Below, in pieces: positions 20,334-40,289 of a stretch of 64,000 nt of DNA. The stretch spans positions 488 to 64,487 of the forward strand of contig JAJOKB010000081.1 in the NCBI GenBank assembly GCA_021208135.1. The letters are read 5' to 3'. Each line of letters starts with the position of its first letter. Within the stretch, counting starts at the first letter, position 1. The notes under the pieces are model-generated. The model was not told the origin of the DNA and searched no databases. It saw only the letters and a list, made by a program, of their open reading frames with translations. A program made the position numbers and the translations under genes. Source of the stretch: Verrucomicrobiota bacterium (lineage in GTDB: Bacteria > Verrucomicrobiota > Verrucomicrobiia > Opitutales > Oceanipulchritudinaceae).

Positions 20334-20347
20334 CACTCTATCAAGCC

Positions 20348-21034
20348 ATGCAATCTGAAGCCAAAGTACTTATAGTAGAAGACGACGCAGTTATGCTGCG
20401 CGGATTGAAGGACAACTTCGAATATCAAGGCTATCAGGTTACCACTGCTGCCAATGGGGAAAAGGGGCTTGAACTCGCCCTCAGTTTGAAACCCGATTTA
20501 ATCATTCTTGATTTAATGATGCCGGGCATGAATGGCTATGAAGTGTGTCAATCCATTCGCGAGGCAGGTCTGGAGATGCCGATACTGATGTTGACCGCCA
20601 AAAGCCAGGAGTCGGATATAGTGATGGGGCTCAAGTTAGGAGCGGATGATTACGTTACCAAACCCTTTGGCATACGGGAACTGCTTGCGCGTGCTGAAAC
20701 GATGTTGCGGCGCACGCGCAAACAGAAACAAACGGAGCATACTTTCGGGGACTGCAAGCTGTTGGTTGAATCCAGGCAATTCTTTCGTTCCGGCGAAGAG
20801 GTCGAACTCTCTCCCAAAGAATTTAAGTTGCTCGAGTTCTTCCTTGAACATCAGGATCGCGCCCTCAGCAGGGATTGGATTTTAAATCAAGTCTGGGGGC
20901 ACGATGTCTATGTTACCGACCGCACTGTGGACCGGTTTGTCACGACTTTGCGCAACAAAATCGAGCCCAATCCCAAGGAACCGCAGTTCCTCAGGACTGT
21001 GCGCGAAGTAGGGTACAAGTTTACCTGCAAGTAG
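20348..21034 (+). CDS. OmpR/PhoB-family response regulator
   Basis: The receiver domain shows VLIVEDD...LIILDLMMPGMNG...LTAK. The winged-helix output domain shows ELSPKEFKLLEFFLEH...TDRTVDRFVTTLRNKIE...LRTVREVGYKF. Confidence 0.92.
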   Translation: MQSEAKVLIVEDDAVMLRGLKDNFEYQGYQVTTAANGEKGLELALSLKPDLIILDLMMPGMNGYEVCQSIREAGLEMPILMLTAKSQESDIVMGLKLGADDYVTKPFGIRELLARAETMLRRTRKQKQTEHTFGDCKLLVESRQFFRSGEEVELSPKEFKLLEFFLEHQDRALSRDWILNQVWGHDVYVTDRTVDRFVTTLRNKIEPNPKEPQFLRTVREVGYKFTCK

Positions 21035-23235
21035 GCGTCGCTGAGCTCAAGGTAAGCCGTCAAACGGATCAATTTTACCGACGCTACTCTGCTCATGACC
21101 AGATCCTCCACTTCGATGGCAGGTACCATGAAATGGGTATAGGCGTAAGGTGGAACAAAGTCCGGGTTTGAGATGGGCACAACGCGGGCGTTTTTGTTGG
21201 CCTCGTTGATCATCAAGTTTTCACCGATGGTAAATTCGCCGCCGTTGGCTGAGACCCACGCATAACCCAGATAATCAAAGACATTTTCCTCGACTCTCAC
21301 TCTGGCAGTTGGGTGACGTGAGCGAATACCTTCTCCCAGGTTGCGGTAAATGCAATTGAAGATGTGGGCTTTGCCAAAACGCACGCTTGGTACGCGAGTA
21401 CCCAATCGGCTATCCTTCTTAAATGGGTTTTCCAGAATGCTATGGTGTATAGTTACCCGCAGGTGCTGATCGTCGTTGTAACGACTGGCGGTGTCGGTGG
21501 ACCCAATCAAGATGAATTTGTGGTGGTTGTGCAGATGAGTCCAGGAGATGGTGACAAAATCCGAGCCATTGGTAATGTCTATCAGACCGTCATAAAGATC
21601 CTTGTTGGTCTGGGTAAAAGGATTGTCGTTGAAGACCTCACAATGATCGATCCAAATGTGGTGGGATCGATCCACCACACGAATACAGTCTCCATCGTTG
21701 GCAACTCCAGCCAGTACGTTCGAAATACGAAGATTGCGCAAAATAACATTGGAGACATTGCGCATTTCAAATCCGATGCCTCGGAATGTTGCGCCGGGAT
21801 GGGCCCCAAGTATCGTTTTATTGGAACCTACGGAAATGCTGTCAGCACCTATAAATGTGCCACTGACTACAATGATTTTTGGGTCGGAACCTGCGGCCTC
21901 ACGTTTAAGATCAGCGATAGTATTGACGTAAACGATCGGGCCACCTTTGCCTCCAGTCACAGTTTCGACCCCCATGCCTGCCACTGTTGCATAACCGATC
22001 GGCGGCATGGCATCAAACTCTACGGGTGGCAGTTCTTCTTCCTCATTATTGCCCAGGGCTACCATGTCTTGACCATTATAAAAGTACCACCTCTGGGTGT
22101 TGAATCCGCGCAGCACCGGAGTGAATGCATCCGAAGTTGCCCACCAACTATCGTGGGCTGCGTCATGGAACATGTAGTACATTTCATCACTGGTGCCCAG
22201 CACGTGCATCCATGTCATGCGACCAGGTAAATAGATAAAATGGCTGCCGTCTTCTGCCGGGAAATAGGCACCAAACTCAGGACGCTCAAGCCAGCCGTTA
22301 CCGATCTCAGTCGATGAGGCCAGATAGCGCAAGAAGGCATCGGGATCAAGTACGATGACCGGATCCACGGGGTCTTCAGGATCCTCAGGATCTTCACCAT
22401 CCCCATCGGTTGTGACCGATATACCATGAAACACCACTGTAGATGCGGTATTGCCTGAACCATCAAATCGAATGGCGAAGGAATCAAAAGCCGTCACCCC
22501 GGCAGTGTTATCTGTCCCTGTTGCTTCGGCAACGATGTTGCCTCCCTGGGAGAATCGGGTAGTTACGGTAGCGGCGTTGCCATTGCGGGTCACGATGAAC
22601 TCCAGGGTGTAGCGTACCCCTGAAGCAAAGGCAGCTGCGCCAGAGGTGCCTCCAGTGCCTAACGCTGCACCGTAAAGTCCGTTTCCGGGAACACTGCCCA
22701 TCAGATTGTCGTTGTTGGCAAACTCAGCCAAGTCTCCATTCCGGCGCCGAATTTCAAGTGGATTAGTGATGCGGAACTGGGTGGAGAAATTCATGTTGAG
22801 CAAGTAGCCGACGACTCCACGGGAACCATTGTTACCCGATGAGAAATCATCCTCTTGCAGGCGATTACCGTCAGCAAAATGAAACAATCCCACGCGCAAG
22901 CCGCGTCCAGTTGAAGCTGAATTGACGCCTTCTGCGGTGAAATCAACTGCGACCCTCAGGGTTTCTCCATCGGATAGCGTGTAAGGGCCACTATTGCTGA
23001 AATACACAATTGCGAGTCGGGAACTATCCACCGTTGCCGTCAGCGCTCCCGGTGTGGCAACTAATCGCGAATTGCTCGAATAATACCAAGCGGCGGTATT
23101 GGGCAGGTTTTGGACATTCCGTACGCCACTGGAGAAATCATCCTCAAGGAGCACGTTTGCATTGGCGGCAATGGCCGCGCAGGCACTAAGCAAGCACGAA
23201 ACTGCTAGTGATTGTATGTATCGTTTATTGGGCAT
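20908..23235 (-). CDS. Pectate lyase, family PL1, with an unnamed ~250 aa N-terminal domain and a Trp/Tyr-rich spacer module; the 3' end as given overlaps the response regulator gene
   Basis: The protein has a signal peptide. The catalytic beta-helix carries HHIWIDHCEV, YDGLIDITNGSDFVTISW and TRVPSVRFGKAHIFNCIY (the PL1 vWiDH and R.P..R motifs). The last ~45 codons are antisense to the regulator gene. An alternative frame stops at 21047-21049. Confidence 0.85.
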   Translation of the reverse strand: MPNKRYIQSLAVSCLLSACAAIAANANVLLEDDFSSGVRNVQNLPNTAAWYYSSNSRLVATPGALTATVDSSRLAIVYFSNSGPYTLSDGETLRVAVDFTAEGVNSASTGRGLRVGLFHFADGNRLQEDDFSSGNNGSRGVVGYLLNMNFSTQFRITNPLEIRRRNGDLAEFANNDNLMGSVPGNGLYGAALGTGGTSGAAAFASGVRYTLEFIVTRNGNAATVTTRFSQGGNIVAEATGTDNTAGVTAFDSFAIRFDGSGNTASTVVFHGISVTTDGDGEDPEDPEDPVDPVIVLDPDAFLRYLASSTEIGNGWLERPEFGAYFPAEDGSHFIYLPGRMTWMHVLGTSDEMYYMFHDAAHDSWWATSDAFTPVLRGFNTQRWYFYNGQDMVALGNNEEEELPPVEFDAMPPIGYATVAGMGVETVTGGKGGPIVYVNTIADLKREAAGSDPKIIVVSGTFIGADSISVGSNKTILGAHPGATFRGIGFEMRNVSNVILRNLRISNVLAGVANDGDCIRVVDRSHHIWIDHCEVFNDNPFTQTNKDLYDGLIDITNGSDFVTISWTHLHNHHKFILIGSTDTASRYNDDQHLRVTIHHSILENPFKKDSRLGTRVPSVRFGKAHIFNCIYRNLGEGIRSRHPTARVRVEENVFDYLGYAWVSANGGEFTIGENLMINEANKNARVVPISNPDFVPPYAYTHFMVPAIEVEDLVMSRVASVKLIRLTAYLELSDAYLQVNLYPTSRTVLRNCGSLGLGSILLRKVVTNRSTVRSVT

Positions 23236-23288
23236 GGATTTTCGGGTAATGAAAGTTTGTGGTTACTGTTGCCCATGCATTCCTCAGA

Positions 23289-24581
23289 TCAGAGTCCAAA
23301 GACAGATGGCAACCAAAGTGATAGGGCGGGGAAGTAAGTGATGATCATCAGTGCAATCACCATCGCAAAAAAGAACGGAATCATCGGGCGAACTACCTGG
23401 GAAATTGGGATTTTTCCGACGCTGCAGCCGACGAACAAACAGGTTCCCACCGGTGGCGTGCAAAGGCCAATACTCAGGTTGGCAATCATCATGATGCCAA
23501 AATGAACCGGATCAAAACCCAAGCCCAATACCACCGGCAGAAAAATAGGCGTGAAGATCAGGACTGCGGGTGTCATATCCATGAATGCGCCCACCATGAG
23601 CAGAAGCAGGTTGATGAGCAGTAGGATGACCAAGGGGTTTTCCGACAGACTGAGCAGTGCCATACTCAAATTTTGCGGTACGTTTTCGTGAGCCAGAATC
23701 CAGCTCATTGCCTGACTGGTGCCTACCAGGAACATGACCACAGAGGTGGTTTTCGCGCTGGCCAGCAATATGTCCGGTAACCGGGAGTAGGGGATTTTTC
23801 GGTAAACCCAAACTCCCAAAATGAAAGCGTATGCTACCGCTATGGCGGACGCTTCGGTGGCTGAAAATATACCTCCTAAAATACCGCCCAAAACGATGAA
23901 GATCAGCAGCAGACTCGGCAGGGCCTGTAGTCCTGCTATCGCAACAGTGCGCAGGTCGGATCCGGCATCTGCGGGTGTGCCACCGCGTACGTTTCCAAGA
24001 AAGCACACGCCCATGATTAACAGGCCCACGAGTATACCGGGGAATACTCCGGCCAAAAATAAGGCCGCCACAGAAACTTCACCAGCCACAACGGCATACA
24101 CTATCATGATATTGCTCGGTGGTATCAGCAGTCCGGTTGTGGCTGATGTCGAGGTGAGGGCGACCGCAAAATCCTTTTTGTACCCACGCTCACGCATTTG
24201 AGGAATCATGAAGCCGCCAATGGAGGAAACCGCTGCTGTTGCTGAACCTGAAAGCGCTCCGAAGAGCATACAGGTGATAGTGTTTACGTAGGCCAGGCCG
24301 CCACGGAACCGACTCATAAGCGCCGAAGCAAAGTCCATCAGGCGGCGTGCCATACCACTTTCACCCATGAGAATGCCCGATAGAATAAAGAACGGGATCG
24401 CCAACAGAGGAAAACTGCCAATACCCGTGGACATTCGCTGCGCCACAATATATCCGGCTGGCAGATTGCCGATAGCGGCGATGGTGACCACGGTTGCCGC
24501 GCCGATGGCTATGGCAATAGGTACGTTCAGCAGCAGCAGGCTGAAAAACGCCAAGATTAAAATGATGACTTCAAGCGTCAT
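23289..24581 (-). CDS. dctM: TRAP transporter large permease subunit
   Basis: 430 aa polytopic membrane protein with the typical DctM N-terminus and the repeated GIFSATEA / GLCTPPVG motifs. Confidence 0.9.
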   Translation of the reverse strand: MTLEVIILILAFFSLLLLNVPIAIAIGAATVVTIAAIGNLPAGYIVAQRMSTGIGSFPLLAIPFFILSGILMGESGMARRLMDFASALMSRFRGGLAYVNTITCMLFGALSGSATAAVSSIGGFMIPQMRERGYKKDFAVALTSTSATTGLLIPPSNIMIVYAVVAGEVSVAALFLAGVFPGILVGLLIMGVCFLGNVRGGTPADAGSDLRTVAIAGLQALPSLLLIFIVLGGILGGIFSATEASAIAVAYAFILGVWVYRKIPYSRLPDILLASAKTTSVVMFLVGTSQAMSWILAHENVPQNLSMALLSLSENPLVILLLINLLLLMVGAFMDMTPAVLIFTPIFLPVVLGLGFDPVHFGIMMIANLSIGLCTPPVGTCLFVGCSVGKIPISQVVRPMIPFFFAMVIALMIITYFPALSLWLPSVFGL

Positions 24582-25080
24582 GGTCCTGGTCCTCAGGCAG
24601 GGGTTGCATTAAGTGTTCGCAGGCAAACAACAGGAAAAAGCCGCCGCTCAGTGGTATCACGCTGTAGAGCCAACCTACTTGCCAACCCAAGGCTGGCGTG
24701 ATCTGACCATTGGCAAGGGAGCGCAGCATCAAGCCCCCACCTCCATAAACCAAGGTGTAGGCGATGAAGGCTATACAAATGCATTCAGCAAGCCTGGCCG
24801 CCAATGGCTTGGCGTCCGGGTGCATACGGCTGATCAGGTAATCAAAGCCGAGATGGCCGCGATCGCGATAGGTGATTGCAGCACCCAGCAAAGAAACCCA
24901 AATCAACAAGTAAATGGCAACCTCCTCTGTCCATCGACTCTGAGTTCCCAGCACATAGCGCGAGAACACACCCCAAAGAACATCCAATACCAAGGCGGCA
25001 AACAATACCACTAACACCCATTGCAGGATTCGCGCTGCGAAGTGGGCGAATGCGAGAAAATATGTCTTTCCAACAGTCAT
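24571..25080 (-). CDS. dctQ: TRAP transporter small permease subunit
   Basis: About 170 aa with four TM helices, lying between dctP and dctM. ATG 25080 follows the dctP stop (25083-25085) by 2 nt. Confidence 0.8.
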   Translation of the reverse strand: MTVGKTYFLAFAHFAARILQWVLVVLFAALVLDVLWGVFSRYVLGTQSRWTEEVAIYLLIWVSLLGAAITYRDRGHLGFDYLISRMHPDAKPLAARLAECICIAFIAYTLVYGGGGLMLRSLANGQITPALGWQVGWLYSVIPLSGGFFLLFACEHLMQPLPEDQDHDA

Positions 25081-25082
25081 TG

Positions 25083-26086
25083 TCACTGTGTTCTGATGCG
25101 TTCGGCCCATTCAGCGATAGCACCGCGCATGTGTCTTTCATAGAGTGGTTGTACTGCCTCGGCAAATGGACGTGGTCCGGCCTGTGGATTTGCACGCCCG
25201 CCTCCGCGAGTCTGTCCAGCGATGCCGCCGTGCTCTCTTGCCAGAGTTTGCGCTGAAAAACTACCGACTCATCCGCCGCCTGTCTGAGCCATTGCCGCTC
25301 CAGCGGACTTAACTGGTCATAAATGGCCTTACTCATTAACAAGATGTCCGGAATACGCGTGTGCTCATTGAGAGAAAAGTGCCTGGCCACCTCGTAGTGT
25401 CGGCTGCTCCACAGGCTGGGTGGATTGTTCTCGGCCCCGTCCACCATGCCTTGTTGCAGAGCAGTGTAGAGTTCTCCCCATGGAATAGGCGTCGGCGAGC
25501 CACCCAATACACTGATCATGTCCATTGCCATCCGACTGGGTAACACACGCAGTTTAAGGCCGCGCACATCCTCCGGTGTCAACACGGGGCGTCTTGTCGT
25601 ATAGAAACTGCGACTGCCAGAGTCATAGTAGCAGATACCGATGGCTCCTACGCTCTCTGAGAGGCGCAGCATTTCAGCGCCAATCGGCCCCATCAACACA
25701 TCCCAGTAATGCTCTTCGTCCCTGAACAGATACGGTAGGCCAAAGACAGCCATGGCAGGTACAAAACCTTCCATGGCCGCAGATGACGTTTTGACTAATG
25801 CCAAAGCACCGCGTTGAACCTGTTCTATGCACTCCGGTTCTGATCCCAGTTGGCCGTTGGGGAAGATTTCAATGACCAGAGTGCCTCCCGAAAGCTCGGC
25901 CAAGCGTTCGGCCATGTAAGCCATTCCGGCATGTACCGGATGTGATTGATCCAGGACATGGCCGAGTTTCAGAACACGCCTGCCGCTATTGGCGTTGGGA
26001 TCCGGTTTCCAGGCCAGCAAAAGCAAGGTTGCCAGAAAGGTTCCCGCCAATACCCCCAGGACGAAGAATGAGGTGGAACGGTTCAT
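25083..26086 (-). CDS. dctP: TRAP transporter solute-binding subunit (DctP family), with an apparent 1-nt deletion at 25174-25175
   Basis: The protein reads LKLGHVLDQSHPVHAGMAYMAERLAELSGGTL...FPNGQLGSE...YYDSGSRSF...RVLPS. After the shift the tail reads RPFAEAVQPLYERHMRGAIAEWAERIRTQ-stop. Its ATG overlaps the GH28 stop (ATGA). Confidence 0.85.
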
Positions 26087-27525
26087 TGGGCGTCGGGCAA
26101 TGGCATACCCCACATGTCTGAGCGTACGCCAGTGTTCTGATCATAGCCATCGAAGGTCATGTTGCGCACATGGTGCATGACTGATGGGCGCTGAGCTCCT
26201 TCAAAGCGACTGTTGATGATCTGAACGTTTTCAATCGGACTTTCGGCAAATCCTACCATGTAAAGCGGGAAACGGCTCTGGCCGCTGGTAACATTTTCCA
26301 GTATGATATTGCGTACGGTTGGCAGGTGTGGGCCGCCAGCTCCTTCCTCGTACAGAAAGTTCACCCGGAATATGGCGTCGGCGACTTGGCCGACACGTAC
26401 GTTGCGCATATAGACATTCTCAACGAAACCGCCTCGGTAAGAGTTGGTCTTAATGCGCAGTGCACGCTGAAGTCGCGGACTGCTCATGGTGCAGTTGTCG
26501 ATAAAGACGTTGCGCACGCCGCCGGACATTTCGCTGCCCATGACCACACCGCCGTGACCATCGCGCATCACGTTGTTGCGGATCACTATATTTTGCGAGG
26601 GCACTGCGAGGCGTCGACCATCCGCATTGCGCCCAGCCTTGATGGCAATACAGTCATCTCCAGTATCAAACAGACTGTCCTCAATCAGCACATCCGTGGA
26701 TGATTCGGGATTGCAGCCATCGTTGTTGGGGCCGTGAGAAATTACGGTCACTCCTCGGATGGTAACATTGGTACAGAGCACCGGATGGATTTGCCACATG
26801 GGGGCACGCAGTATGGTGATGTCCTGAATCAATATATTCCTGCTGCGGTAAGGTTGAATAAACATAGGTCGCAGGTAGGAGCCTTCGGCAAAGATGCGCT
26901 CCTCTGGTGGTACTCCCGCCTCGGCCATTTCGAACAAGACGGCCCTGGCGGTGTACTGATGCGGATCGCCTTCTCGCCAGCCTCGGCGTTCCTGACCTTT
27001 CCAGGGCCACCAGTTTTCAACACTGGCCTGGCCATCCAAGGTTCCGTTACCAGTGATCGCGATGTTCTCGACTTCAAAGGCATAAATGAGGGGGGAATAA
27101 CCCATCATTTCCACGCCTTCCCAGCGTGTGAATACCGCTGGCAAGTAGTCGTTGGGGTCAGTGGAGAATTTGAGTACTGCTCCGTCTTCGAGGTGCAGGT
27201 TTACATTGCTGCGCAAATGGATGGGACCAGTGAAGAAGGTTTGTCCACCTGGAATTACCACCCTGCCTCCACCCGCCTCAGCGCAAGCTGCAATTGCAGC
27301 TGCGATGGCTTCGGTGACCACCGTTTCCGGTTTGGCCCCAAAGTCGTCGATGCGAAAGTCGCGATCAGGAAAAGTGGGCTCGACTATACGTGCCAGAATT
27401 TCTGCCACCGCTGCATCAAAATCAGGGCGCTCTCCAGCGGCAATGCCAGTGGAGGGTAAATTGAGAGCGATGGTTGCACTCGCGAGTGCGGTCAGCACTC
27501 GTTTTAGGGAGACTGCCTTTTTCAT
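26083..27525 (-). CDS. Glycoside hydrolase family 28 (polygalacturonase / exo-galacturonidase)
   Basis: The protein has a signal peptide and the GH28 signatures NNDGCNPESS, DTGDDCIAIKAG, RDGHGGVVMGSE and RALRIKTN. Confidence 0.9.
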   Translation of the reverse strand: MKKAVSLKRVLTALASATIALNLPSTGIAAGERPDFDAAVAEILARIVEPTFPDRDFRIDDFGAKPETVVTEAIAAAIAACAEAGGGRVVIPGGQTFFTGPIHLRSNVNLHLEDGAVLKFSTDPNDYLPAVFTRWEGVEMMGYSPLIYAFEVENIAITGNGTLDGQASVENWWPWKGQERRGWREGDPHQYTARAVLFEMAEAGVPPEERIFAEGSYLRPMFIQPYRSRNILIQDITILRAPMWQIHPVLCTNVTIRGVTVISHGPNNDGCNPESSTDVLIEDSLFDTGDDCIAIKAGRNADGRRLAVPSQNIVIRNNVMRDGHGGVVMGSEMSGGVRNVFIDNCTMSSPRLQRALRIKTNSYRGGFVENVYMRNVRVGQVADAIFRVNFLYEEGAGGPHLPTVRNIILENVTSGQSRFPLYMVGFAESPIENVQIINSRFEGAQRPSVMHHVRNMTFDGYDQNTGVRSDMWGMPLPDAQ

Positions 27526-27529
27526 TGTC

Positions 27530-28726
27530 TTAGCCTTGTACGGATTCGATTTGACCGTTGTTCTGCCAGAAGAAGAAACCGGATCCAAACACGTAGATCC
27601 AATTCGGGGCGACGTTGTTGACATGAATCCAATCGCCGTTGGCAGAGAGTACGCCCGGAGGTAGCCAGGTCATGTAACCGGACTCGTCAGCCTGTCCGAC
27701 AAACATCCAGCCGCTGCGGGTGTAAATCCAATCACTCTCTGGTACTGCGTAGAATGTGCCCAATAGTTCGTTGCGGTAAACATTGGCAATATCGAGTGGC
27801 TCGGAATCGGCCAGTACGACTTCGATGGCTGGTGTAGTTGGTGTCGGCGTGGTACCGTCGTTCACATCAGCGCCGGAGAAGATATATATCTGGTCGAGGA
27901 CAAAATCCGTTTCAGCGTGACTGGCAGTTGCCGTGGTGAATGAAAAAGTACTGAAACCCAGGCTCGGGTTGAAGTTGTTTTTGTCTTCAAACACAGTGCC
28001 ATTGGGATTTGCCGCTGGAGTAACCAACTGCCCATTCACAAACAAGTCGATGCGTAAAGGATGCAGGGTGCGCTCAGTACCGTACAGAACGTAGGTGAAA
28101 TTGTCGGTTGTGGAAGCATTGACGATCAAATCGTATTTGTGCGGTAGCGCGGGCACTGGAGTAGGCGTGCCACCTCCCGGGTCGGCGACAAACCTGGGTG
28201 GGGCCACGTTGGGAGTGCCTCTGGGGAACTCATTGAGCCAGTTCCAGGCCCCGGTTACCGTGCCATCGGATATGATCTCCAACAAGTTTTGGTAATTGGC
28301 GGAGCTGGCGTTGATTGTCACTTCATCGATTCCCGGATTAGCGGCGCGCAAGGCGATCTTGCGCAAACCTGAATCCACCCAGAAATAGTTCATGTTGATC
28401 GCTCTGAAGCTGACCCGAAAGCCGCCGGTAAGAGGCTCGGGAAGCATCACTGAGGCGTCGGCACGGGAATAACTGCCGGATTCAAAGCTCCAAATCCTCA
28501 TGCCAGCTATGTGACCGGGCATGGGATTGTTGGGTGTGATCAGAGCACCCCAAGTTGTGCCGAAGTTGGTTCCCTGTTTGATGTTGGTGAAACCACTGAC
28601 GCCGGGTTGGTCAAAACTGTCATACAGTTGAAAGACCGCGCCCGATGCGGCTGTCGTCATCAGCGACGCGACAGCGATTATTCCGAGGGTAGGGTATATC
28701 TTTGTCATAGGTGTGTTCATTGTCAT
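27530..28726 (-). CDS. Secreted hypothetical protein (lectin/LamG-like beta-sandwich guess) with a C-terminal Trp/Tyr-rich module
   Basis: An intact 398 aa ORF with a signal peptide, inside the pectin operon. Its ATG overlaps the GH105 stop (ATGA at 28723-28726). The C-terminus reads DWIYTRSGWMFVGQADESGYMTWL...NWIYVFGSGFFFW. Confidence 0.5.
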   Translation of the reverse strand: MTMNTPMTKIYPTLGIIAVASLMTTAASGAVFQLYDSFDQPGVSGFTNIKQGTNFGTTWGALITPNNPMPGHIAGMRIWSFESGSYSRADASVMLPEPLTGGFRVSFRAINMNYFWVDSGLRKIALRAANPGIDEVTINASSANYQNLLEIISDGTVTGAWNWLNEFPRGTPNVAPPRFVADPGGGTPTPVPALPHKYDLIVNASTTDNFTYVLYGTERTLHPLRIDLFVNGQLVTPAANPNGTVFEDKNNFNPSLGFSTFSFTTATASHAETDFVLDQIYIFSGADVNDGTTPTPTTPAIEVVLADSEPLDIANVYRNELLGTFYAVPESDWIYTRSGWMFVGQADESGYMTWLPPGVLSANGDWIHVNNVAPNWIYVFGSGFFFWQNNGQIESVQG

Positions 28727-31149: not shown

Positions 31150-31162
31150 CTCAAACTCCTTT

Positions 31163-31936
31163 TTATCGGCTTAACCAGCCACCGTCGACAACGATTTCAG
31201 AGCCGGTTATGTATTCAGCAGCAGGGGAGGCCAAAAAGACTGCTGCACCCATTAGATCTTCCGGTTGGCCCCAACGACCGGCTGGAATACGCTCTATAAT
31301 TGAACGGTTGCGTACCACGTCTTGACGTAATGGCAAAGTATTGTCAGTTGCGATATACCCTGGAACAATCCCATTCACTGTTATGGCATGAGCGGCCAGC
31401 TCGTTTGCCATTGCTCTGGTCAGACCTTGCAATCCGCTTTTTGCCGCTGTGTATGCTGCAACTCGAATTCCGCCCTGATGGGAAAGCAGGGAGTGGATAT
31501 TGATGATACGTCCAGGCTGTTGACGTTTCACCAACTCGGCGGCACATTTGCGCGAGAGGTCGAACACTGCGGTTAGGTTGATCTCCAGCACTTCACTCCA
31601 ATCGGAGGCCGGGAAATTAATAAAATCAGCCCGTCGGATAATGCCGGCATTGTTACACAGTATGTGCGGAATGGTATCTGCGTTTAACAGGTTATGCCAC
31701 AGTTGTTGGCGGTCTTCGCGGTCTGCCAGGTCGCAGTGAACAGCGAGGTGATTGCCAGCGGGATTCAGTTTTTGCAGTTCGCCAATCAGCGATTCCAGAT
31801 TGCCCCTGGCGACGGCGATCACCGAAGCGCCAGCGGCAGCAAAGCCATGGGCGAGCGCACGACCAATGCCGCGCGAGGCACCCGTGACCAGCGCACGCTT
31901 ACCCATGAGTGAAAAATCTGCTCCCGCTGTTGGCAT
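31163..31936 (-). CDS. kduD: 2-dehydro-3-deoxy-D-gluconate 5-dehydrogenase (SDR family)
   Basis: The protein aligns end to end with E. coli KduD as I remember it: GKRALVTGASRGIG, NNAGIIRR, YTAAKSG, IPAGRWGQPEDLMGAAVFLAS, VDGGWLSR. Confidence 0.85.
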   Translation of the reverse strand: MPTAGADFSLMGKRALVTGASRGIGRALAHGFAAAGASVIAVARGNLESLIGELQKLNPAGNHLAVHCDLADREDRQQLWHNLLNADTIPHILCNNAGIIRRADFINFPASDWSEVLEINLTAVFDLSRKCAAELVKRQQPGRIINIHSLLSHQGGIRVAAYTAAKSGLQGLTRAMANELAAHAITVNGIVPGYIATDNTLPLRQDVVRNRSIIERIPAGRWGQPEDLMGAAVFLASPAAEYITGSEIVVDGGWLSR

Positions 31937-31940
31937 GTGC

Positions 31941-32774
31941 TTATTTGAGTGAATTATTGAGCACCGGATCCATGTCATCAAAGGACTGGTTTTCTCCGCC
32001 CATAGCCCATACAAAGCCGTAATTTGCCGTACCTACACCGGAATGGATCGACCAACTGGGCGATAATACGGCTTGTTGTTCGCGCACTATCAAATGGCGT
32101 GTTTCGTTGGGTTCTCCCATGAGATGGATGACCATCTCGTTTTCTGGCAGGGAGAAATAAAAGTACACCTCAGATCTGCGTGCGTGGGTATGCGTGGGCA
32201 TAGTGTTCCATACACTTCCGGGCTTCAAAAATGTCATCCCCATGACCAATTGGCATGTTTGCACGGTTGCCGGAGTGATGGCCGCGTGAATGCTGCGGTG
32301 ATTGCTGTTTTCACTGGCTCCCATTACCTTGCCGTTACAGGAGTCACCGCGAATCAGTTTTGTCGGATAGGCATGATGGGCAGGGTAACTGACAAAATAG
32401 AAACGGGCATGCTGTCCCTTTTTACGGATCGAGGAAAAGGTAACGTGTTGCGAACCTTTGCCCACATACAGGAAATCATGTGTTTGCAGATCAAATTGAG
32501 TTCCGTCCACGGTCACTTGGCCCGGTGCACCCAGATTCACAATGCCAATTTCGCGGCGCTCACAGAAACAGCTGGAACGCAAAGCTGATTGATTATCCAA
32601 ATCAATCGAGCGTCCATTGGGTATAGCCATGCCTACTATGGTGCGATCTGTTTCCCAATAGCACAATTTCAGGCCACCTTCATTCACCAGATCCTCGATC
32701 AGGAACTGGTTGCGCAGCTTCTGGGTGTCCAGTGATGCTACTTCTCCAACCCCTGTCGCCGGGATGTGGCGCAT
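31941..32774 (-). CDS. kduI: 5-dehydro-4-deoxy-D-glucuronate isomerase (4-deoxy-L-threo-5-hexosulose-uronate ketol-isomerase)
   Basis: The protein is strongly collinear with E. coli KduI: LDTQKLRNQFLIE, WNTMPTHTHARRSEVYFYF, ETRHLIV, AVLSPSWSIHSGVGT, GENQSFDDMD. I chose the start at MRHIP (32774); ATG 32834 is an alternative. Confidence 0.88.
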   Translation of the reverse strand: MRHIPATGVGEVASLDTQKLRNQFLIEDLVNEGGLKLCYWETDRTIVGMAIPNGRSIDLDNQSALRSSCFCERREIGIVNLGAPGQVTVDGTQFDLQTHDFLYVGKGSQHVTFSSIRKKGQHARFYFVSYPAHHAYPTKLIRGDSCNGKVMGASENSNHRSIHAAITPATVQTCQLVMGMTFLKPGSVWNTMPTHTHARRSEVYFYFSLPENEMVIHLMGEPNETRHLIVREQQAVLSPSWSIHSGVGTANYGFVWAMGGENQSFDDMDPVLNNSLK

Positions 32775-32845
32775 ACAATCCGCTACCTCTCCTTTGACCG
32801 GAGGTTTGGTTTTTCGCTTAGTAGGTACCTTCATAAAATTCAGTT

Positions 32846-35743
32846 TTAAAATGTTCCTTTGACGCCGACGGTCCACAGTGCACCGAAGCGCTCGCGCCGC
32901 TCCAGTTTGGCGTAGTCCGGAGTGTCCACTCCGTACCGCAGTTGATCGGTAGGTTCATCGAAAATATTGCGACCGTTCAGGAATACCCGCAGGTATCGTG
33001 CAAAGCGGTATTCGATATTCAGGTCAGTCGTCAGGCGGCGGTCATAATAGCGGTTCCAGAAGGACGGATTGGCTGCTGAATTGCCGACATACACCCCACG
33101 GATGTCTCCAGTGTCACGCATTTGCTTGCCGCGTAAATTCCACTTCAGACGAATATCCCAGCGACCTTTATCATAGGTGATACCCCAATTGGCGGTTTGT
33201 TTAATAAAGCCAGGAACATAGGATGCATCCACCAGCTGATTTTGGCTGGCACCATAATCGCCACGTGTGGTCAGGATGGTCGTATTGGCGAAAACAGAAA
33301 ATCCGTCCAGCAACTCAACCCAGGGGCCAAGATCTTGCACGAATGCGAACTCCAGACCTTTAATGGTGACATCACCCGCGTTGACGGGGCGGCGCATCAA
33401 CCAGCCTTGTTGCACAAAAATAGCATCAATTCCCAATTGATCAGCCAAATCCTGCGTTAGCAAAACCGTCTCATTATCGATGAAACCTTTGATCTGTTTG
33501 TAGAACGCCCCAACCGAAATAAGTCCCCCGGTGTCAAAATAGTACTCTAGAGAAATGTCAAAATTGTCGCCGCTGTATGCCGTCAAATTGGGATTAAAGG
33601 CCTCAATCACAAAGCGCTCTTCACCGGTTTCATCCTCTTCGCGACTGTTGGTGAAACGTATGCCTGGGGCAAGGTCACTGATGTCAGGACGCCCCAATGT
33701 TCTGGCGTAGGCCAAACGGGCTTGCAACCGCTCGTTCACTTCATAGGTGAAATGTAAACTAGGATAAAAATCATCGTAGCTGCTTTTCGATGTTTGGCGC
33801 TGGGCATACTGTGCCCTGATTCTTCTGGCAAGATTGGCCGGTGTGTCTGGTCCGGCAAACTCCGGCTTCAGTACCCGATTCTGTGGATTGTCTCCCAAAA
33901 ACGGATTGATCAGGCGGAAACTGCCGTCGGGATTGCGCTCGTAAATAACCGTGTCATCGCGGGCATAACCTTCACCGCTGTTTGAGGTGCGCTCATAGCG
34001 CACGCCACCCAATATGCGCAACCTGCCATTCATCAGCGCGATCCGCCCCATCAGGTAAGCCGCTGTCACTTCCTCTTCAACTTGTTGGCGATTCTCTTCG
34101 TTGTAGATAACATTGGCGACTTCATCGAAGAAAAAGTGGTCAGGATTGGCTTGGAAATATTGGAATACTTTGCGCGAATCCGGCCACTCCGGTGCCGGCC
34201 AACCCCACCCAAGGCGTTGTCCAACGTAATTCTCATCCCGGAAGAAAGAACTGCCCGGTCCAACTTGATTGAAGATCGGTTGAGTGCGCGGATAGTTGAA
34301 TTCGCGCCGCTCGATCTCACGCTTTTGCTGACGGTATAGCATGCCTGTTTGCAGGGTGAGGCGGTTGCCGCTTACGTCCATGTGCCGGGTCAAATCAAAT
34401 TTGCCGCCATAAATGGTATCGCTGGCATCTTCAGGACGCGACCGCAGGGACTCCAGTACCGTGTCATCGGTCAACGGAAAGGGATCGATCTCCGCACCCG
34501 CTCTGCGGGTAGTCACCGACGCGGGGCCATTGTTGCCAATATCATTGAAATGAATGGCAAGGTTGGCCGGAGTACGGAAAATAACGCGCTCAAAATAACC
34601 ATTGTCAGTATCGCGATACTGATTTTCCGACTTTGAATAATAGCCGTCGTATGTCAGTTCCCACTGATCAAAATAGTGCTTCATTCCCATATCAACGTGG
34701 TTGGTCTGCCCCGACTTTTCCCGCGCCGTCACTTGATGACGAAAACGACCGTTGGGATTGATGTTTGGGTTGGGATTGGTGAAGGTGGGTCCGTAATTGC
34801 CAGCACTGGTACTGGTCTCCCAACGCACTTCCCGATTGAAAAAGGTAGTCGAGTACTCATTGCGCTGATACCCAAACGAGAAAATACTACCAGGACGAAT
34901 CCTCCAGTCCGCTTTGATTCCCAAACTTTCACGCTCCGAGATTTTGGGTCCATCCCGCAGGTTAAAATACCGCAGATAAGGATCGCTCTGCCCTATGGCT
35001 GCATTCACCGAATCCCACTGCGTGATGAAGTATTGCTGCGGCGTAAATGTTTCCGCATTCATGTAATTGATCACAATGCCAAAATCGTCCGTCAGCGGAT
35101 CCGAATAGGTGAAGTCAAAGCCGGGACGGATCTTGCGCGTCGCACCGGCATCAGGACCAGGGGTCCGACTCCAGCGAATATAATCTCCCGGCACATTCAT
35201 AAATACACGGTAGTCAAACTTCCGTTGCGCCAACTCAAATGCGTTGCGACTGACCATGTTTACGGCACCACCCAATGAGTCCGCCTCCATCGCAGGTGTC
35301 GGCACTTTGACCACTTCAATGCGCGCCACATTATTCAACGACACTTGCTCAAATTCAAATGTCCTGCTCGAACTCGACGAGGCCGCACTTGCCATGCGGT
35401 TACCGTCCATAGTCACCGCCGTGAAATTAGACGCCAGTCCGCGCACCGAAACCGAGCGCACGTCTGCAGATACGAAATCAACACTGATGCCAGGCAGGAA
35501 TTTCAGGAATTCGCCGACATTACCCTCCGTTATGTCACCAAAGGCTCCAGCATCCACCACGTTTTTGATGTTCTCCGCCTGCCTCTGGTTCGTTATCGCC
35601 GCACGTATCGCATCAAATTCAGCTCCACGTACTACAAATTCCTCCATCTCGTACACTGGACTTTCCTCCTGCGCGGACGCGACCACACATAGACTCACGG
35701 TCGCAATTGCAACCGGCCAAGTGACTCTTCTTACTCGTTTCAT
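32846..35743 (-). CDS. TonB-dependent outer-membrane receptor (first gene of the pectin operon)
   Basis: The protein has a signal peptide, a plug region (FVVRGAE...IKNVVDAGAFGDITEGNVGEFLKFLPGISV...VRGL) and a long beta-barrel ending in the terminal aromatic ...VGVKGTF. Confidence 0.9.
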   Translation of the reverse strand: MKRVRRVTWPVAIATVSLCVVASAQEESPVYEMEEFVVRGAEFDAIRAAITNQRQAENIKNVVDAGAFGDITEGNVGEFLKFLPGISVDFVSADVRSVSVRGLASNFTAVTMDGNRMASAASSSSSRTFEFEQVSLNNVARIEVVKVPTPAMEADSLGGAVNMVSRNAFELAQRKFDYRVFMNVPGDYIRWSRTPGPDAGATRKIRPGFDFTYSDPLTDDFGIVINYMNAETFTPQQYFITQWDSVNAAIGQSDPYLRYFNLRDGPKISERESLGIKADWRIRPGSIFSFGYQRNEYSTTFFNREVRWETSTSAGNYGPTFTNPNPNINPNGRFRHQVTAREKSGQTNHVDMGMKHYFDQWELTYDGYYSKSENQYRDTDNGYFERVIFRTPANLAIHFNDIGNNGPASVTTRRAGAEIDPFPLTDDTVLESLRSRPEDASDTIYGGKFDLTRHMDVSGNRLTLQTGMLYRQQKREIERREFNYPRTQPIFNQVGPGSSFFRDENYVGQRLGWGWPAPEWPDSRKVFQYFQANPDHFFFDEVANVIYNEENRQQVEEEVTAAYLMGRIALMNGRLRILGGVRYERTSNSGEGYARDDTVIYERNPDGSFRLINPFLGDNPQNRVLKPEFAGPDTPANLARRIRAQYAQRQTSKSSYDDFYPSLHFTYEVNERLQARLAYARTLGRPDISDLAPGIRFTNSREEDETGEERFVIEAFNPNLTAYSGDNFDISLEYYFDTGGLISVGAFYKQIKGFIDNETVLLTQDLADQLGIDAIFVQQGWLMRRPVNAGDVTIKGLEFAFVQDLGPWVELLDGFSVFANTTILTTRGDYGASQNQLVDASYVPGFIKQTANWGITYDKGRWDIRLKWNLRGKQMRDTGDIRGVYVGNSAANPSFWNRYYDRRLTTDLNIEYRFARYLRVFLNGRNIFDEPTDQLRYGVDTPDYAKLERRERFGALWTVGVKGTF

Positions 35744-35770
35744 GGGTTCCTCCGGGGTATTGGGGTTGTG

Positions 35771-35800
35771 AAATTCAAATATGAATAATAAATTCAAATA
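35771..35800. promoter_or_regulatory. Direct repeat of the 11-mer AAATTCAAATA (35771-35781 and 35790-35800) in the divergent TBDR / IclR-regulator intergenic region; candidate operator
   Basis: Two exact copies lie 19 nt apart (start to start) in the 139 nt divergent promoter region. The reverse complement recurs upstream of the PL9 gene. Confidence 0.3.
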
Positions 35801-35882
35801 CGACTGTATTGTTACGATTGTGTGTGTCAAGCGTAGAAAAAAGATTGCGCATAATTAAGATGGGGTGCATTGCGATGAGAGT

Positions 35883-36649
35883 ATGAGTGGAGATTACCGG
35901 ATACCAAACTTGGCGAAAGCGTGTGCGGCGTTGAAATGGATTCAGCGTGAACCTGAGCGTGGGGTCACAGTAAAAATGGTATCCAAGGCGGTGGGCATAC
36001 CGTACACCACCTGTTTCCGAATTTTGCAGACACTGGCTGCTGAGAATTTTCTGAGGCGCGATGGCGACAACTATTTTTTGGGAACAGGATTGATCCCGTT
36101 GGGGTTGGGTGCGCGCAAGAACATGGGTATTCGCACTGTGGCGTTGCCACACCTGCAGGAATTGTCTGCGGCGACAGGGGAGACAGTGCAGTTGGCGATT
36201 CCCACTGAAAATCGCTCCATGATTCTGGAGGTTGTTTACGGCAGTCATCCTCTCAGTGCTACCACTCCCGTCCGGGGACTTTGGTTGAGTTGTATTGTTC
36301 GGCCACGGGCAAGGTGTTTTTGACCTGGGCATTGCGCGATCGTATGGAAGATATCCTTGCAGCCGAAAAGCCACTGCAACGCACGCCCAAGACCCTCACC
36401 ACTGCGGCTGAATTGGGTCGCGACTGTGAGATCATCCGTGATCGCGGATATGCCATCGACGAAGAAGAGTACTTTCTTGGGGTACGTTGTCTGGCAGCAC
36501 CGGTATTTGATGCTGAAGGTCGGTTGCAGGCCGCTGTGGGCATAACCGCTTCCGTCATTACCCTGCCTTTGGATAAGGTGGATGAGTTTGCCGCACGTTT
36601 GCTGGCCACGACCAGAAGAATATCCATGGAGTTCACTGGCGGTCGTTAA
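35883..36649 (+). CDS. IclR-family transcriptional regulator (KdgR-like), with an apparent 1-nt deletion in the G run at 36274-36277
   Basis: The N-terminal wHTH reads LAKACAALKWIQREPERGVTVKMVSKAVGIPYTTCFRILQTL. After the shift the effector domain reads (G)TLVELYCSATGKVFLTWA...RDRGYAIDEEEYFLGVRCLAAPVFD. It is divergent from the pectin operon. Confidence 0.8.
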
Positions 36650-36738
36650 CGGTGGATATTTCGCTCTATTGAGCAACTAAGGGCGCGGACTTTGCAGCCC
36701 GCGCCCTCCTTCGATGCTAACCCCCTACTGAAAAATTG

Positions 36739-37667
36739 TTAGCTTGTGCGCGTGCGGCGACGGAGGATAGCGAAGCCCAGAATCAACAGCCCCGCCAAGG
36801 CAGCATAGGTCGATGGTTCGGGTATGGGTGCCACTGACAGTCCGGTCAGGGTAATGTCAGAGAACTGGTTCATTCCACCGCCCAGGCGAATCGCAATCGA
36901 ATTGAAATCGAGCACAGGGGAAGCGCTGTCGGTTACCGTATAGGTCAATCCCACGAGGTTGCCTCCGGTCAATGATGTGGTGATGGACAGTGTGCCCGCA
37001 CTTTCTACGAAAGATACGCTGAGTAGGAATCTGTGTTGGCGTCCAGATAACCTGTTGCACCACTGGAACCGCTGCCGCCAATAGCAGATCCCCAGACGCC
37101 TGCCGATCCGAGCAAATCATTGCTGTTGGTATCGGTGCGCTTAAAGGTGTTCAGAACCAGGTTGTTGGTGTTGCCTCCGCCCACGAATGAGCCGGACGAA
37201 AACAGCGCATAACCGCGGTCGCCAACATAGGAAGCATCAGTGGAGCCAAATCCATCGGTTGTTCTAAAGCCGTTGGGACTGGAATCCAGGATGGCAATAC
37301 GCAGGTTATTCGGGGTTCCCCCAAATGCGCCTGTGCGGAAGCTCAGGTTTAAGGTTATTCCCTCGCTGCCAACGGATACTGTTGGAAAATAGCCAATCGC
37401 CATGCGATTTGAGGTATTGTTCATGTTCCAGTTCAGTCCGCTGCCAGTGGCCACCATCTGACTGGTGCCATTCACCACCCACTGGGTGTTGGTTGATGTC
37501 GGTGTCGAAATGACCGGGGATGATGCTGTGGTCGACGAACCATCTGTACCGCCTATACGGTCCAGATTCGTAAAGGTGTCATTCACATAGGCAGAGGCAC
37601 CCGCAGGCAACAATACCAAACCAAGTGCACACGATTGAGCGACGAGTTTTACGCGAGATGAGATCAT
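36739..37667 (-). CDS. PEP-CTERM-anchored secreted protein, a stand-alone copy of the domain found at the N-termini of the PL1 and PL9 lyases; apparent frame break near 37003-37012
   Basis: The protein has a signal peptide. ORFs 37005-37667 and 36739-36972 join as ...DSYSAYLSFVESAGTLSITTSLTGGNLVGL... The C-terminus PIPEPSTYAALAGLLILGFAILRRRTRTS is a PEP-CTERM sorting signal. Confidence 0.75.
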
Positions 37668-37870
37668 AGAGCTGAGTTGATTGTGAGGTTATTGGAGTAG
37701 TTCACACTGGAATAATCCATATATGAATTTATGAGCCAAATGTGAATTAATATTTGCCCCATGTCAACACATTATTTTGCACAATTTGTGGATGGGGCTT
37801 TTGCAGAACAAGGTCGGCTTGTTTCGACCGGCGCAAAGAGATGCCGGAATTTAGTTTTGACAATCATGCA

Positions 37871-37904
37871 TATTTGAATTCATATGCGGATTAAGAATTC
37901 AAAA
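37871..37904. promoter_or_regulatory. Inverted pair TATTTGAATT (37871-37880) / AATTCAAAA (37896-37904) upstream of the PL9 gene; candidate operator related to the 35771-35800 repeats
   Basis: TATTTGAATT is the exact reverse complement of AATTCAAATA. A second, near-identical arm lies 15 nt downstream in the opposite orientation, 30 nt before ATG 37934. Confidence 0.3.
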
Positions 37905-37933
37905 CCCCGAAAATCTTTAACTACTCAAGAATT

Positions 37934-40289
37934 ATGATGCGAAATACAGCGAAAGTGGCTGTGCTGGCGTGTGTTTGCACGTTGGTTGTGCCGGAGTTAT
38001 CAGCAAATCAGGTGTTACTGGACGATGATTTCTCGTCTGGTAGTCGTGTGGTCCAGTCTTTGCCTGAGCGTTCTGCGTGGTTTGGGTCCAGTACCGACCG
38101 ACTGTTTGTGAACGAGACCGGTTTGGTCGGTCAACTGGATGGAAGTTCGCGTATGTGGCTGACCTATTTTAGCAATAATACGCCGGTGGAAATAGGAGAG
38201 GGAGGCCGGTTGGTGGTTGATCTGGAGTTCTCCGTAACTGGCGTGAGTGAGACAAATACAAATCGTGGCATGCGCATAGGTCTTTTTTAATTATGCGGCT
38301 GCTGACCGGGTAACGGAAGACGGGTTTTCCAGTGCGGGTGGCAATGGCACCTTGGTAACTGGGTACCTGGTCAACATGAATTTTGCGCGCACCTGGGGAT
38401 TGGATGCTCCGATCGAGCTGCGTCGTCGCGAGCAAGTGAATGACGGAAATCTAATGGGTGCGCTGGCTGTGTTTGGCAGTCCGTTGGGTGTGAGTGGAGC
38501 GCGTACTGGTGAGGCTGGCATTACGGCAAATGTTAAGCATCGATTGCGCTTTGAAGTGGAGCGCACAGGAGCGAATGTGGCCATTACCGTGAAATTGTTC
38601 ACTGGATCCACGCTGCTCGACCAGGTGAGTGTGATTGATGAAGCAGGGGTTACATCCTTTGATGCAATAGCCCTGCGGCCTGCTGGCCCGCTACAGTCTG
38701 CGGAAGAGTTCACTTTCAGCAGGATATATGTGGAATTGGAAGGTGAAATTGCCGAACCGCCTCCGCCACGGGAAAGTCCTTGGGCGGCCATTGCGCCCCT
38801 GGATGCCAATGGCAACAAACCCGGATTGGGCGGAGTCATCAACGATGTTCATTTTCCGTGGGTGTATCATTACGGACTGCCGGGATGGAAGTATATATAT
38901 CCTGAAGCAGAGTTAGGCAGTATGTTTGGTTACGCCTATGTTTTTGGTGGGTACCAATTCTGGACAGCCGACAATGCGCAAGGTTGGCACAGGATAATCG
39001 ACATTGATCAATGGGCCCGCTTTGACCAACTGCCGATACTGGACCTGTTTGACCGATTCCGGCCTCAACCGACACCTGCGGATGTTATTCCTCAGGGCGA
39101 ACGCACGCTGTACGTTGCTTTGTCAGGATCGGATTCTGCGGGTGGCAGTATCAACGCCCCCCTGCGCACGCTGGGGAGGGCTGTGGCCATCTCACAGCCG
39201 GGAGATGTGATCGTGATGCGAGGCGGCGTTTACCAACATAGCAGCACGATTAGTATAGGAACCAGTCGCAGCGGTACCAGTTCACGTCCGATTACTGTGA
39301 TTAATTACCCCGGAGAGTCGGTGATCCTTGATTTCTCCCAGCAAAACAGAGGAAGTGGCAACATCGGGGTGCGTTTGGATGCCTCGAATTGGCGGTTGAT
39401 CGGATTGACTATACGCAACGCCGGTCACAATGGATTGCGCGTCGATGGCAGCAACAATCGCCTGGAACGATTGGTGACTCACAACAATCACGACACAGGC
39501 CTGCATTTGGCAGGAAACGCTTCCCACAATCTGATTCTAAATTGCGACAGTTACCATAATTTTAATACCACGGGGCGTGTGGGCAACAATGCGGATGGGT
39601 TTGGAGCCAAGTTTACCAGTCTCGGGCCAGGCAACTGGTTTTACGGTTGCCGCTCCTGGGAGAATTCTGATGACGGGTTTGATTTCTGGGAAGCTCCAAA
39701 CCCTGTCAGAGTCGAAAATTGTTGGGCCTTCGGTAATGGTGATCCATCGGTTTTCGGATTTCCGGCCAATTTTGAAGGAGCGGGCAATGGCTTCAAATTG
39801 GGCGGCAATTTTGTCGCCGGGAACCACATTGTCATCCGGTCTCTGGCTTTTGACAATCTGGGAACAACCAGGAATGCCAAGGGTTTCGATCACAACAACA
39901 ACACCGGTGCCCTAACGTTTATCCACAACACTGCATTCAACAACGGACGTAATTTTGTCATTCCCAATGTTCCTGTAGGCGGTGGTCAGCATGTGTTCTA
40001 CAACAATCTAAGTGCGCCTTTCATAACACTGGTCCAAATCGCTCCAGGCAGCCTGCAGCAAGGCAATAGCTGGCAGCGTGGTGTGGTTACCGACGCTATG
40101 TTCCGCAGTTTGAATACAGCCTTGGCCAAGAGTCCCAGGCAACCTGATGGTTCATTGCCGGTCATTGATCTGCTAAGACCGTTAGCAGGGAGTTTTCTTA
40201 TCGATGGCGGTGTGGATCTTGGACCCCAGTTTCCATTTTTCGGAGCCGCTCCTGATATCGGCGCTTACGAGTTGATGCCAAATCCATAA
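37934..40289 (+). CDS. Pectate lyase-like right-handed beta-helix protein (PL9-like) with the same unnamed N-terminal domain and Trp/Tyr-rich module as the PL1 lyase; apparent 1-nt insertion in the T6 run at 38283-38288
   Basis: ORF 37934-38290 continues in the next frame as ...MRIGLF-NYAAADRVTEDGFSS...TGYLVNMNF (ORF 38352-40289). The catalytic part shows APLRTLGRAV..PGDVIVMRGGVY, NNADGFGAK, NSDDGFDFW and AGNGFKLGGN, which are beta-helix lyase motifs of the PL9 type. Confidence 0.8.

Follow-up and report, generated by a model that had tools for sequence, protein, structure and literature searches.

How might a bacterium take up pectate through an outer-membrane receptor that has no SusD-like partner? 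The question is raised by a locus in a 64,000-nucleotide stretch (the window) of contig JAJOKB010000081.1, from an Opitutales metagenome-assembled genome (MAG) of the Verrucomicrobiota (GCA_021208135.1), where a gene for a TonB-dependent receptor (TBDR) heads an array of genes for pectate lyases, uronate enzymes and a tripartite ATP-independent periplasmic (TRAP) transporter. The locus very probably serves homogalacturonan (pectate) utilisation by a TBDR-based system of the CUT type (carbohydrate utilisation locus with TonB-dependent transporter), without SusD. The substrates, cellular locations, regulation and binding proposed here are inferred from which genes are present, their homologues and synteny, where a motif lies and how the proteins are predicted to fold. 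Secreted PL1 and PL9 lyases, each with a lectin-like N-terminal module, would cut de-esterified pectin outside the cell to unsaturated oligogalacturonides, and these oligomers would be imported by the TIGR01782-type TBDR. In the periplasm, a DUF4861-GH105 fusion protein would remove the unsaturated terminal residue and an exo-acting GH28 would release galacturonate. The DctPQM transporter would then carry monomeric uronates into the cytoplasm; KduI and KduD would convert the unsaturated product to 2-keto-3-deoxygluconate (KDG), and a kinase, aldolase and UxaC route encoded on other contigs would complete the pathway.

Organization of the locus

An open reading frame (ORF) listing combined with Pfam and NCBIfam scans gave ten co-oriented genes on the minus strand, running from 35743 down to about 21047. 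The first operon gene encodes the TBDR (32846-35743), with a signal peptide, plug and barrel (Pfam Plug and TonB_dep_Rec_b-barrel). It is followed by kduI, for 5-dehydro-4-deoxy-D-glucuronate isomerase (31941-32834; PF04962, NF002091 equivalog), and by a kduD-like short-chain dehydrogenase/reductase gene (2-dehydro-3-deoxy-D-gluconate 5-dehydrogenase; 31163-31936) whose best NCBIfam match is TIGR01832, kduD. Next come the gene for a secreted fusion of DUF4861 (residues 38-404, PF16153) to a GH105 unsaturated uronyl hydrolase (residues 454-797, PF07470) at 28723-31149; that for P0001 (27530-28726), a secreted protein of no named family, made up of a lectin-type jelly roll (residues ~30-290) and an aromatic-rich beta module (~305-396); and that for a GH28 of the exo-polygalacturonase type with a signal peptide (26083-27525; PF00295). 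The TRAP genes follow: dctP for the solute-binding subunit (25085-26086; PF03480, TIGR00787), dctQ for the small membrane subunit (24571-25080; PF04290) and dctM for the large one (23289-24581; PF06808 at E 7e-120, TIGR00786 above cut-off). The array ends with a PL1 pectate lyase gene (about 21047 to 23235) that encodes a lectin-like N-domain (residues 25-290), an aromatic-rich linker module and a beta-helix catalytic domain (PF00544).

A 139-nt intergenic region separates the operon from three further genes. These are a divergent gene for an IclR/KdgR-type regulator (35883-36649, plus strand; HTH_IclR and IclR_C, split over two ORFs), a gene for a PEP-CTERM-anchored protein whose lectin-like domain stands alone (36739-37667, minus strand; PF07589), and a gene for a PL9 pectate lyase whose lectin-like N-domain is the same as that of PL1 (37934-40289, plus strand; PF22842). 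An earlier note on this DNA, written from the sequence, had named the ten array genes as well as the regulator, the PEP-CTERM protein and the PL9-like lyase; Pfam and NCBIfam matches agree with it for the array, and Pfam domains for the other three.

The array is tightly packed, with gaps of 11 nt between the TBDR gene and kduI, 4 nt between kduI and kduD, 13 nt between kduD and the GH105 fusion gene, 4 nt between the P0001 and GH28 genes, 4 nt between dctP and dctQ (TGA, four bases, ATG) and 53 nt between dctM and the PL1 gene. The GH105 fusion and P0001 genes are joined by an ATGA overlap at 28723-28726, as are those for GH28 and DctP at 26083-26086. Three such overlaps had been claimed and two listed; our reading of the junctions finds two in the array. 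The overlap reported for dctQ and dctM measures 11 nt at the refined coordinates. Judged from N-termini read by eye, signal peptides are present on the TBDR, the GH105 fusion protein, P0001, GH28, PL1, PL9 and the PEP-CTERM protein, and absent from KduI and KduD.

Depolymerases and uronate enzymes

Assignment of the four carbohydrate-active enzymes (CAZymes) to PL1, PL9, GH28 and GH105 holds at the level of both Pfam and PDB homology. PL1 scores 115.5 bits against PF00544 (Pectate_lyase_4; cut-off 24), and among PDB sequences its catalytic part is nearest to pectate lyases (7bbv, E 1.6e-40), with pectin lyases far weaker (E 1e-4). PL9 scores 90.8 bits against PF22842 (cut-off 25.2) and is nearest to Pel9A (1ru4, E 8e-69), with a PL9 rhamnogalacturonan lyase, 5olq, at E 1e-31. 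The GH28 protein, at 105.9 bits against PF00295 (Glyco_hydro_28; cut-off 22.9), has the exo-poly-alpha-D-galacturonosidase of Thermotoga as its nearest PDB relative (3jur, E 8e-124), a relationship that suggests an exo mode of action.

The hydrolase domain of the fusion protein belongs to GH105 (4wu0, E 3e-97; YteR, E 2e-71) as opposed to GH88 (5noa, E 1e-10), and the DUF4861-GH105 fusion is kept in four related contigs (L009, L011, L020 and L030). The DUF4861 part has no sequence relative in the PDB. Its only functional datum concerns BT3233, which Bacteroides thetaiotaomicron requires to grow on three glycosaminoglycans (PMC8121099); glycosaminoglycans also give unsaturated uronates, and the conserved fusion fits a role coupled to that step. 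KduI exceeds its equivalog cut-off (NF002091, 384.6 bits against 250), and kduD adjoins kduI in all of the long-form loci described below.

The later steps had been said to lie outside the window, and kdgK-, eda- and uxaC-type genes were indeed found on other contigs of the assembly. Contig C32 carries uxaC with an adjacent PfkB kinase gene, C10 a KDPG-aldolase gene (eda), also next to a PfkB kinase gene, and C106 a second aldolase gene (eda); a gene of the altronate/galactarate-dehydratase type is present on C1.

Receptor and transport

The TBDR matches the NCBIfam model TIGR01782 (TonB-Xanth-Caul) with 410.8 bits against a cut-off of 310 and is 64% identical to its L009 orthologue. No SusC/RagA model of NCBIfam matched it at E<=1e-5, and the receptor is not of the SusC type. 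A search of the entire 74.5%-complete MAG for SusD_RagB (PF07980) gave no match, although the B. thetaiotaomicron control was matched; nor did any gene of the locus match SusD in Pfam. The absence of SusD proposed in the earlier note is thus borne out, beside a receptor of the TIGR01782 class. An orthologous receptor at L030:2480-5590 carries an N-terminal CarboxypepD_reg domain, a SusC-like feature that the TBDR of the window does not have.

All three subunits of the TRAP transporter are encoded, and DctQ is 78% identical to that of L009. The best PDB matches of DctP are 4x8r (E 5e-75) and 4n8y (E 6e-73), which were bound to glucuronate and galacturonate, respectively (PMC11668362).

Directly downstream of the PL9 gene, at 40471-48490, lies a TonB2-type cluster (40.5-45.8 kb) with genes for a DUF3450 protein (split over two ORFs, 40833/40872), a long MotA/ExbB, a short ExbB, ExbD, TonB and a tetratricopeptide repeat (TPR) protein, and after the last of these a second TBDR gene (45842-48490). 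This cluster may energise the pectate receptor.

Conservation in related contigs

The arrangement is found unbroken in at least seven related contigs of Opitutales/Puniceicoccaceae, and operon order is kept in at least five of the long form. These long-form loci (L009/L010, L011, L020 and L030) have intact genes in the order seen in the window. L030 has all ten genes in identical order, followed by PL9; L009 has no PL1 gene, and L011 and L020 have no GH28 gene and carry a gene for a large multi-domain protein after dctM. The named syntenic relatives are all Opitutales or Puniceicoccaceae MAGs, which lends indirect support to the view, taken in the earlier note, of a polysaccharide utilisation locus (PUL)-like architecture of a Verrucomicrobia type.

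A short form is found in L019, from a Puniceicoccaceae MAG (L019:2617-12970), and in L031 (L031:1552-8483). It comprises the PEP-CTERM lectin-like protein, the TBDR, P0001 directly after it, and a PL1-like lyase of about 600 aa without a Pfam match. In L019 the short form adjoins genes of the enolase superfamily, the dihydrodipicolinate synthase (DHDPS) family and an NAD-binding dehydrogenase, neighbours that suggest an acid-sugar catabolic route. A further contig, L032, carries P0001 and PL1 genes, and the gene upstream of P0001 is cut by the contig end. P0001 accompanies this TBDR in every locus in which the upstream neighbour can be identified.

Regulation

The palindrome TTCAnATnTGAAT, with one mismatch allowed, occurs at three sites in the window, all of them in promoters of the locus. 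One copy, TTCAAATATGAAT (35773-35786), lies 17 nt downstream of the -10 hexamer of the best sigma-70-like promoter of the region. This promoter (35803-35830, minus strand), upstream of the TBDR gene, reads TTGACA, a 16-nt spacer and TACAGT and is placed by its consensus match alone (10/12). The other two copies, each with one mismatch, are upstream of the PEP-CTERM gene (37715-37728) and of the PL9 gene (37866-37879). In the related loci the palindrome is confined to the corresponding intergenic regions, with six sites in L009 (in two divergent intergenic regions), two in L011 and two in L020, the last of which was left uninspected until the pattern had been fixed. L019, a locus without an IclR gene, has no site. 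Both HTH_IclR and IclR_C are present across the frame break that divides the regulator gene. The palindrome is likely to be the IclR operator. As the motif placement suggests, a KdgR-like repressor bound to it would probably control the ten-gene operon, its own gene, the PEP-CTERM gene and the PL9 gene.

Two lectin-like protein families

The N-terminal domain of PL1 and PL9, of about 260 residues, makes up the body of the PEP-CTERM protein as well, which is linked to the profile of this domain (family A4) through its intact L019 orthologue (hhalign probability 99.3%). An exhaustive profile search found 848 A4 clusters at E<=1e-3. Among 61 sampled proteins, the partner domains were PL1 in ten, PL9-like in two (Beta_helix in four), PL6 in two, PL7 and GH88 in one each, Ig-like domains in 22 and PEP-CTERM in four; A4 is attached mostly to polyuronate lyases, or is found with PEP-CTERM anchors. 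In its AlphaFold model (pLDDT 94.5) the domain folds as a concanavalin-like jelly roll, and structure comparison singles out no one family as nearest (best Z 14.5). No Pfam family matched the domain at E<=1 in the PEP-CTERM protein or at E<=0.01 in the N-terminal part of PL1, and no NCBIfam model matched A4. We regard A4 as a candidate carbohydrate-binding module (CBM) for acidic glycans and a candidate new CBM family. Three tandem copies of A4 followed by a C-terminal aromatic-rich module, with no catalytic domain, make up a 922-aa protein of L011 (L011:14298-17066); in its L020 counterpart (1290 aa) the three copies are fused to a PL1 domain.

P0001 (family A1) has 398 aa and no Pfam or NCBIfam match, and its family profile retrieved nothing from PDB sequences at E<=10. 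The family is very rare: 13 clusters among 5.8 billion proteins, with one named match, from an Opitutales MAG, and full-length relatives in 4 of 401 sampled genomes of the order, this one included, all of the same taxonomic family. In the predicted fold (pLDDT 82.5) a small aromatic-rich beta module comes after a jelly roll. Structure comparison matched the fold best to the lectin-like domains that sialidases carry (Z 16.0, 15.6 and 14.6); the third of these is the sialic acid-binding domain of Vibrio cholerae, which we take to be a CBM40. No kinship in sequence was seen between A1 and A4 (hhalign probability 0.2%). Several other matches were set aside: those in a language-model atlas were weak and to unrelated DUFs; those in a structure atlas were generic jelly rolls with TM <=0.62, save for a 218-aa viral protein with TM 0.73 by match and 0.43 by query; and Foldseek matches to botulinum-toxin binding domains, at an rmsd of ~17-18 Å, reflect only a generic layout of a jelly roll plus a second domain.

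Weak profile matches to the aromatic-rich 'WxY' module of P0001 (27530-27810; residues ~305-396) occur throughout the order in many proteins of very large size, the longest of about 4900 aa. A hidden Markov model of the module built from the P0001 family alone matches PL1 weakly (residues ~305-365, E 0.002) and PL9 not at all at E<=0.01. These matches weakly suggest that the module is common to P0001 and the lyases. Proteins of the Opitutales may commonly use this module for surface retention or for binding.

What, then, does P0001 do? Most likely, to judge by fold and synteny, it and the PEP-CTERM lectin-like protein are non-catalytic glycan binders that serve the receptor. A serious competitor, which we consider unlikely but by no means far-fetched, is that P0001 is an enzyme that acts on oligogalacturonides and represents a new family of jelly-roll polysaccharide lyases or esterases. 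The fold is common to PL20 glucuronan lyase (Z 13.0; Foldseek E 1e-6), PL14 and PL7, the gene is translationally coupled between those of two periplasmic enzymes, many Arg, Lys, Tyr, Gln, Asp and Glu residues are invariant, and no CE8 gene was found in the MAG. Yet the best structural matches (Z 16.0-14.6) are to non-catalytic lectin and CBM40-type domains, and invariance is weakly informative among 13 sequences that are at least 45% identical; moreover, the annotated pathway is complete without P0001, and the short-form loci place its gene directly after that of the receptor.

The role of P0001 as a binder can be extended to a broader proposal, which we put forward tentatively and regard as rather unlikely to hold in full: that the SusD-less TBDR loci of Opitutales possess a glycan-capture apparatus of their own. 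In it the PEP-CTERM lectin, whose domain is also found on the lyases, and P0001 would be analogues of SusD and of surface glycan-binding proteins, and the aromatic-rich module would hold secreted proteins at the surface. The minimal form seen in L019 and L031 consists of the PEP-CTERM lectin, TBDR, P0001 and PL1-like lyase.

Substrate of the locus

Five observations weigh against the assignment to pectate utilisation as a whole. The NCBIfam model nearest to GH28 is BT4155, an alpha-D-galacturonidase from a rhamnogalacturonan PUL, matched below its cut-off. The top match of KduD, TIGR01832 at 302.9 bits, is below the equivalog cut-off of 338.85. The MAG, at 74.5% completeness, yielded no CE8 pectin methylesterase, so native methyl-esterified pectin may not be a substrate. 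The roles of the lectin-like proteins depend on fold and synteny, and the fold is common to jelly-roll lyases of PL14 and PL20 (Z ~13). Finally, five genes of the locus are frame-broken in the deposited sequence.

The first of these observations bears on whether the target could be some other uronate polymer, such as rhamnogalacturonan I (RG-I), algal or seagrass galacturonans, ulvan or a glycosaminoglycan-like polymer, in place of plain homogalacturonan. We think this improbable. BT4155 comes from an RG-I PUL; YteR, the founder of GH105 and second-best PDB match of the fusion protein, acts on unsaturated rhamnogalacturonan; PL9 does match the rhamnogalacturonan lyase 5olq (E 1e-31); the DUF4861 protein BT3233 is required for glycosaminoglycan growth (PMC8121099); and the steps taken by KduI and KduD are common to all unsaturated uronates. 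Against this, Pel9A is a much better match for PL9 than the rhamnogalacturonan lyase (8e-69 vs 1e-31), the best match of GH28 is an exo-polygalacturonosidase, PL1 matches pectate lyases, and the locus has no rhamnosidase, PL4/PL11, sulfatase or rhamnose catabolic gene.

Frame breaks and sequence quality

The genes for PL1, DctP, the IclR regulator, the PEP-CTERM protein and PL9 are each broken by one missing base; the breaks were located with tblastn, the queries being orthologues that are intact in related contigs. The PL1 break (minus strand) is near 21082. The uncorrected PL1-domain ORF, of 775 aa, runs on to a false end at 20908, which the earlier note had taken as the start of the locus; alignment to the L020 orthologue places the C-terminus, and the true stop, at about 21047. 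With the stop so corrected, an apparent 127-nt overlap with a response-regulator gene vanishes. That gene is part of a co-oriented group at 16920-21034, convergent with the PL1 gene, which encodes, besides this OmpR-type response regulator, a histidine kinase and a 499-aa protein that matches no Pfam family.

In dctP (minus strand), alignment with its counterparts in L009 and L011 shows a break near 25175, past which some 30 C-terminal residues and the true stop (25085) are in a different frame. The IclR gene (plus strand) is broken at 36266-36280, with residues 1-128 of the L009 orthologue (258 aa) matched in one frame and 129-253 in the next. The PEP-CTERM gene (minus strand) is broken near 37040 and shows 54-59% identity to its intact L019 orthologue over both frames. 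In the PL9 gene (plus strand) the break falls in a run of six T residues at 38283-38288, and residues 3-129 of the L011 PL9 (808 aa) are matched in one frame and 128-806 in another.

We read these breaks as errors of sequencing or assembly and not as decay, because the essential tryptophanyl-tRNA synthetase (TrpRS) gene of the same window (15320-16782) is also frame-broken, right after its KMSKS motif, and other contigs of the assembly, a MAG of 119 contigs, likewise have split genes, among them uxaC, one of the eda copies and several PfkB genes. Real breaks would make pseudogenes of the regulator, PEP-CTERM, PL9, dctP and PL1 genes and leave the locus decaying or constitutively de-repressed, and although five of them fall within 19 kb, three in consecutive genes, this is extremely improbable, as essential genes are broken too (TrpRS), the uxaC, eda and PfkB kinase genes on other contigs of this 119-contig MAG are split as well, each break is a single missing base with both flanks conserved (33-84% identity to orthologues) and no further damage, and the orthologues are all intact. 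The TrpRS gene as given is read through from an upstream RRM-domain ORF, so that RRM_1 and tRNA-synt_1b share one ORF; given the error rate, this apparent RRM-TrpRS fusion may reflect a lost stop.

Comparison with known systems

The system belongs to a kind already known, that of pectin loci built on a TBDR, here with predicted uronate transport and probable control of the KdgR type. Literature searches in a limited library for a pectin locus combining a TBDR with a TRAP transporter found no specific paper. Current understanding is not overturned. The value of the locus is as a clean, conserved Verrucomicrobiota architecture and a well-resolved example of selfish uptake of acidic plant or algal polysaccharides in a phylum that lacks SusC/SusD. 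Its working parts, kept over several MAGs, are a TBDR of proteobacterial type, a TRAP transporter predicted to take hexuronates, and a switch resembling KdgR, for which there is a candidate operator. The unusual parts are the two unnamed lectin-like families, which may be stand-ins for the missing SusD-type sugar binder. Both are testable targets for biochemistry: the A4 module (~250 residues, roughly 850 clusters) and P0001, the very rare receptor-linked lectin-fold protein.

A close parallel in overall plan is with the proteobacterial CUT loci of the Xanthomonas/Caulobacter type, reportedly described by Blanvillain and co-workers in 2007. As in those loci, the genes around a TBDR of the TIGR01782 class include those for CAZymes, a regulator and a transporter of the inner membrane, and SusD is absent. 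Unlike them, the locus has a Verrucomicrobiota host, its lyases bear an unnamed lectin-like module, and the receptor is accompanied by a PEP-CTERM-anchored copy of that module and by a rare lectin-fold protein.

With Bacteroidota pectin PULs the locus has in common the CAZyme set (PL1, PL9, GH28, GH105 and DUF4861), the placement of DUF4861 next to a GH88/GH105-type hydrolase, and a selfish-uptake logic with exo-enzymes in the periplasm. It differs in having no SusD-like gene, a receptor that is not of the SusC type, a TRAP transporter where those PULs have one of the major facilitator superfamily (MFS), and an IclR regulator in place of a hybrid two-component system or SusR.

The regulatory side recalls the enterobacterial KdgR regulon of Dickeya/Erwinia (pel, ogl, kduI, kduD, togMNAB, kdgT), in which an IclR-family repressor goes together with kduI, kduD and pectate lyases, and promoters carry a palindromic operator, here a candidate one. 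The operator sequences differ, that of the present locus being TTCAnATnTGAAT; GH105 takes the place of the cytoplasmic Ogl lyase, and a TBDR and TRAP transporter that of the KdgM porin with Tog, KdgT or ExuT. Lastly, the hexuronate TRAP transporters represented by PDB 4N8Y and 4X8R are the closest counterparts of DctPQM: both are the best PDB matches of DctP, and the three subunits are present. In contrast to those systems, which belong to monosaccharide catabolic clusters, the transporter described here is part of a polysaccharide operon, with a ligand that is predicted by homology.

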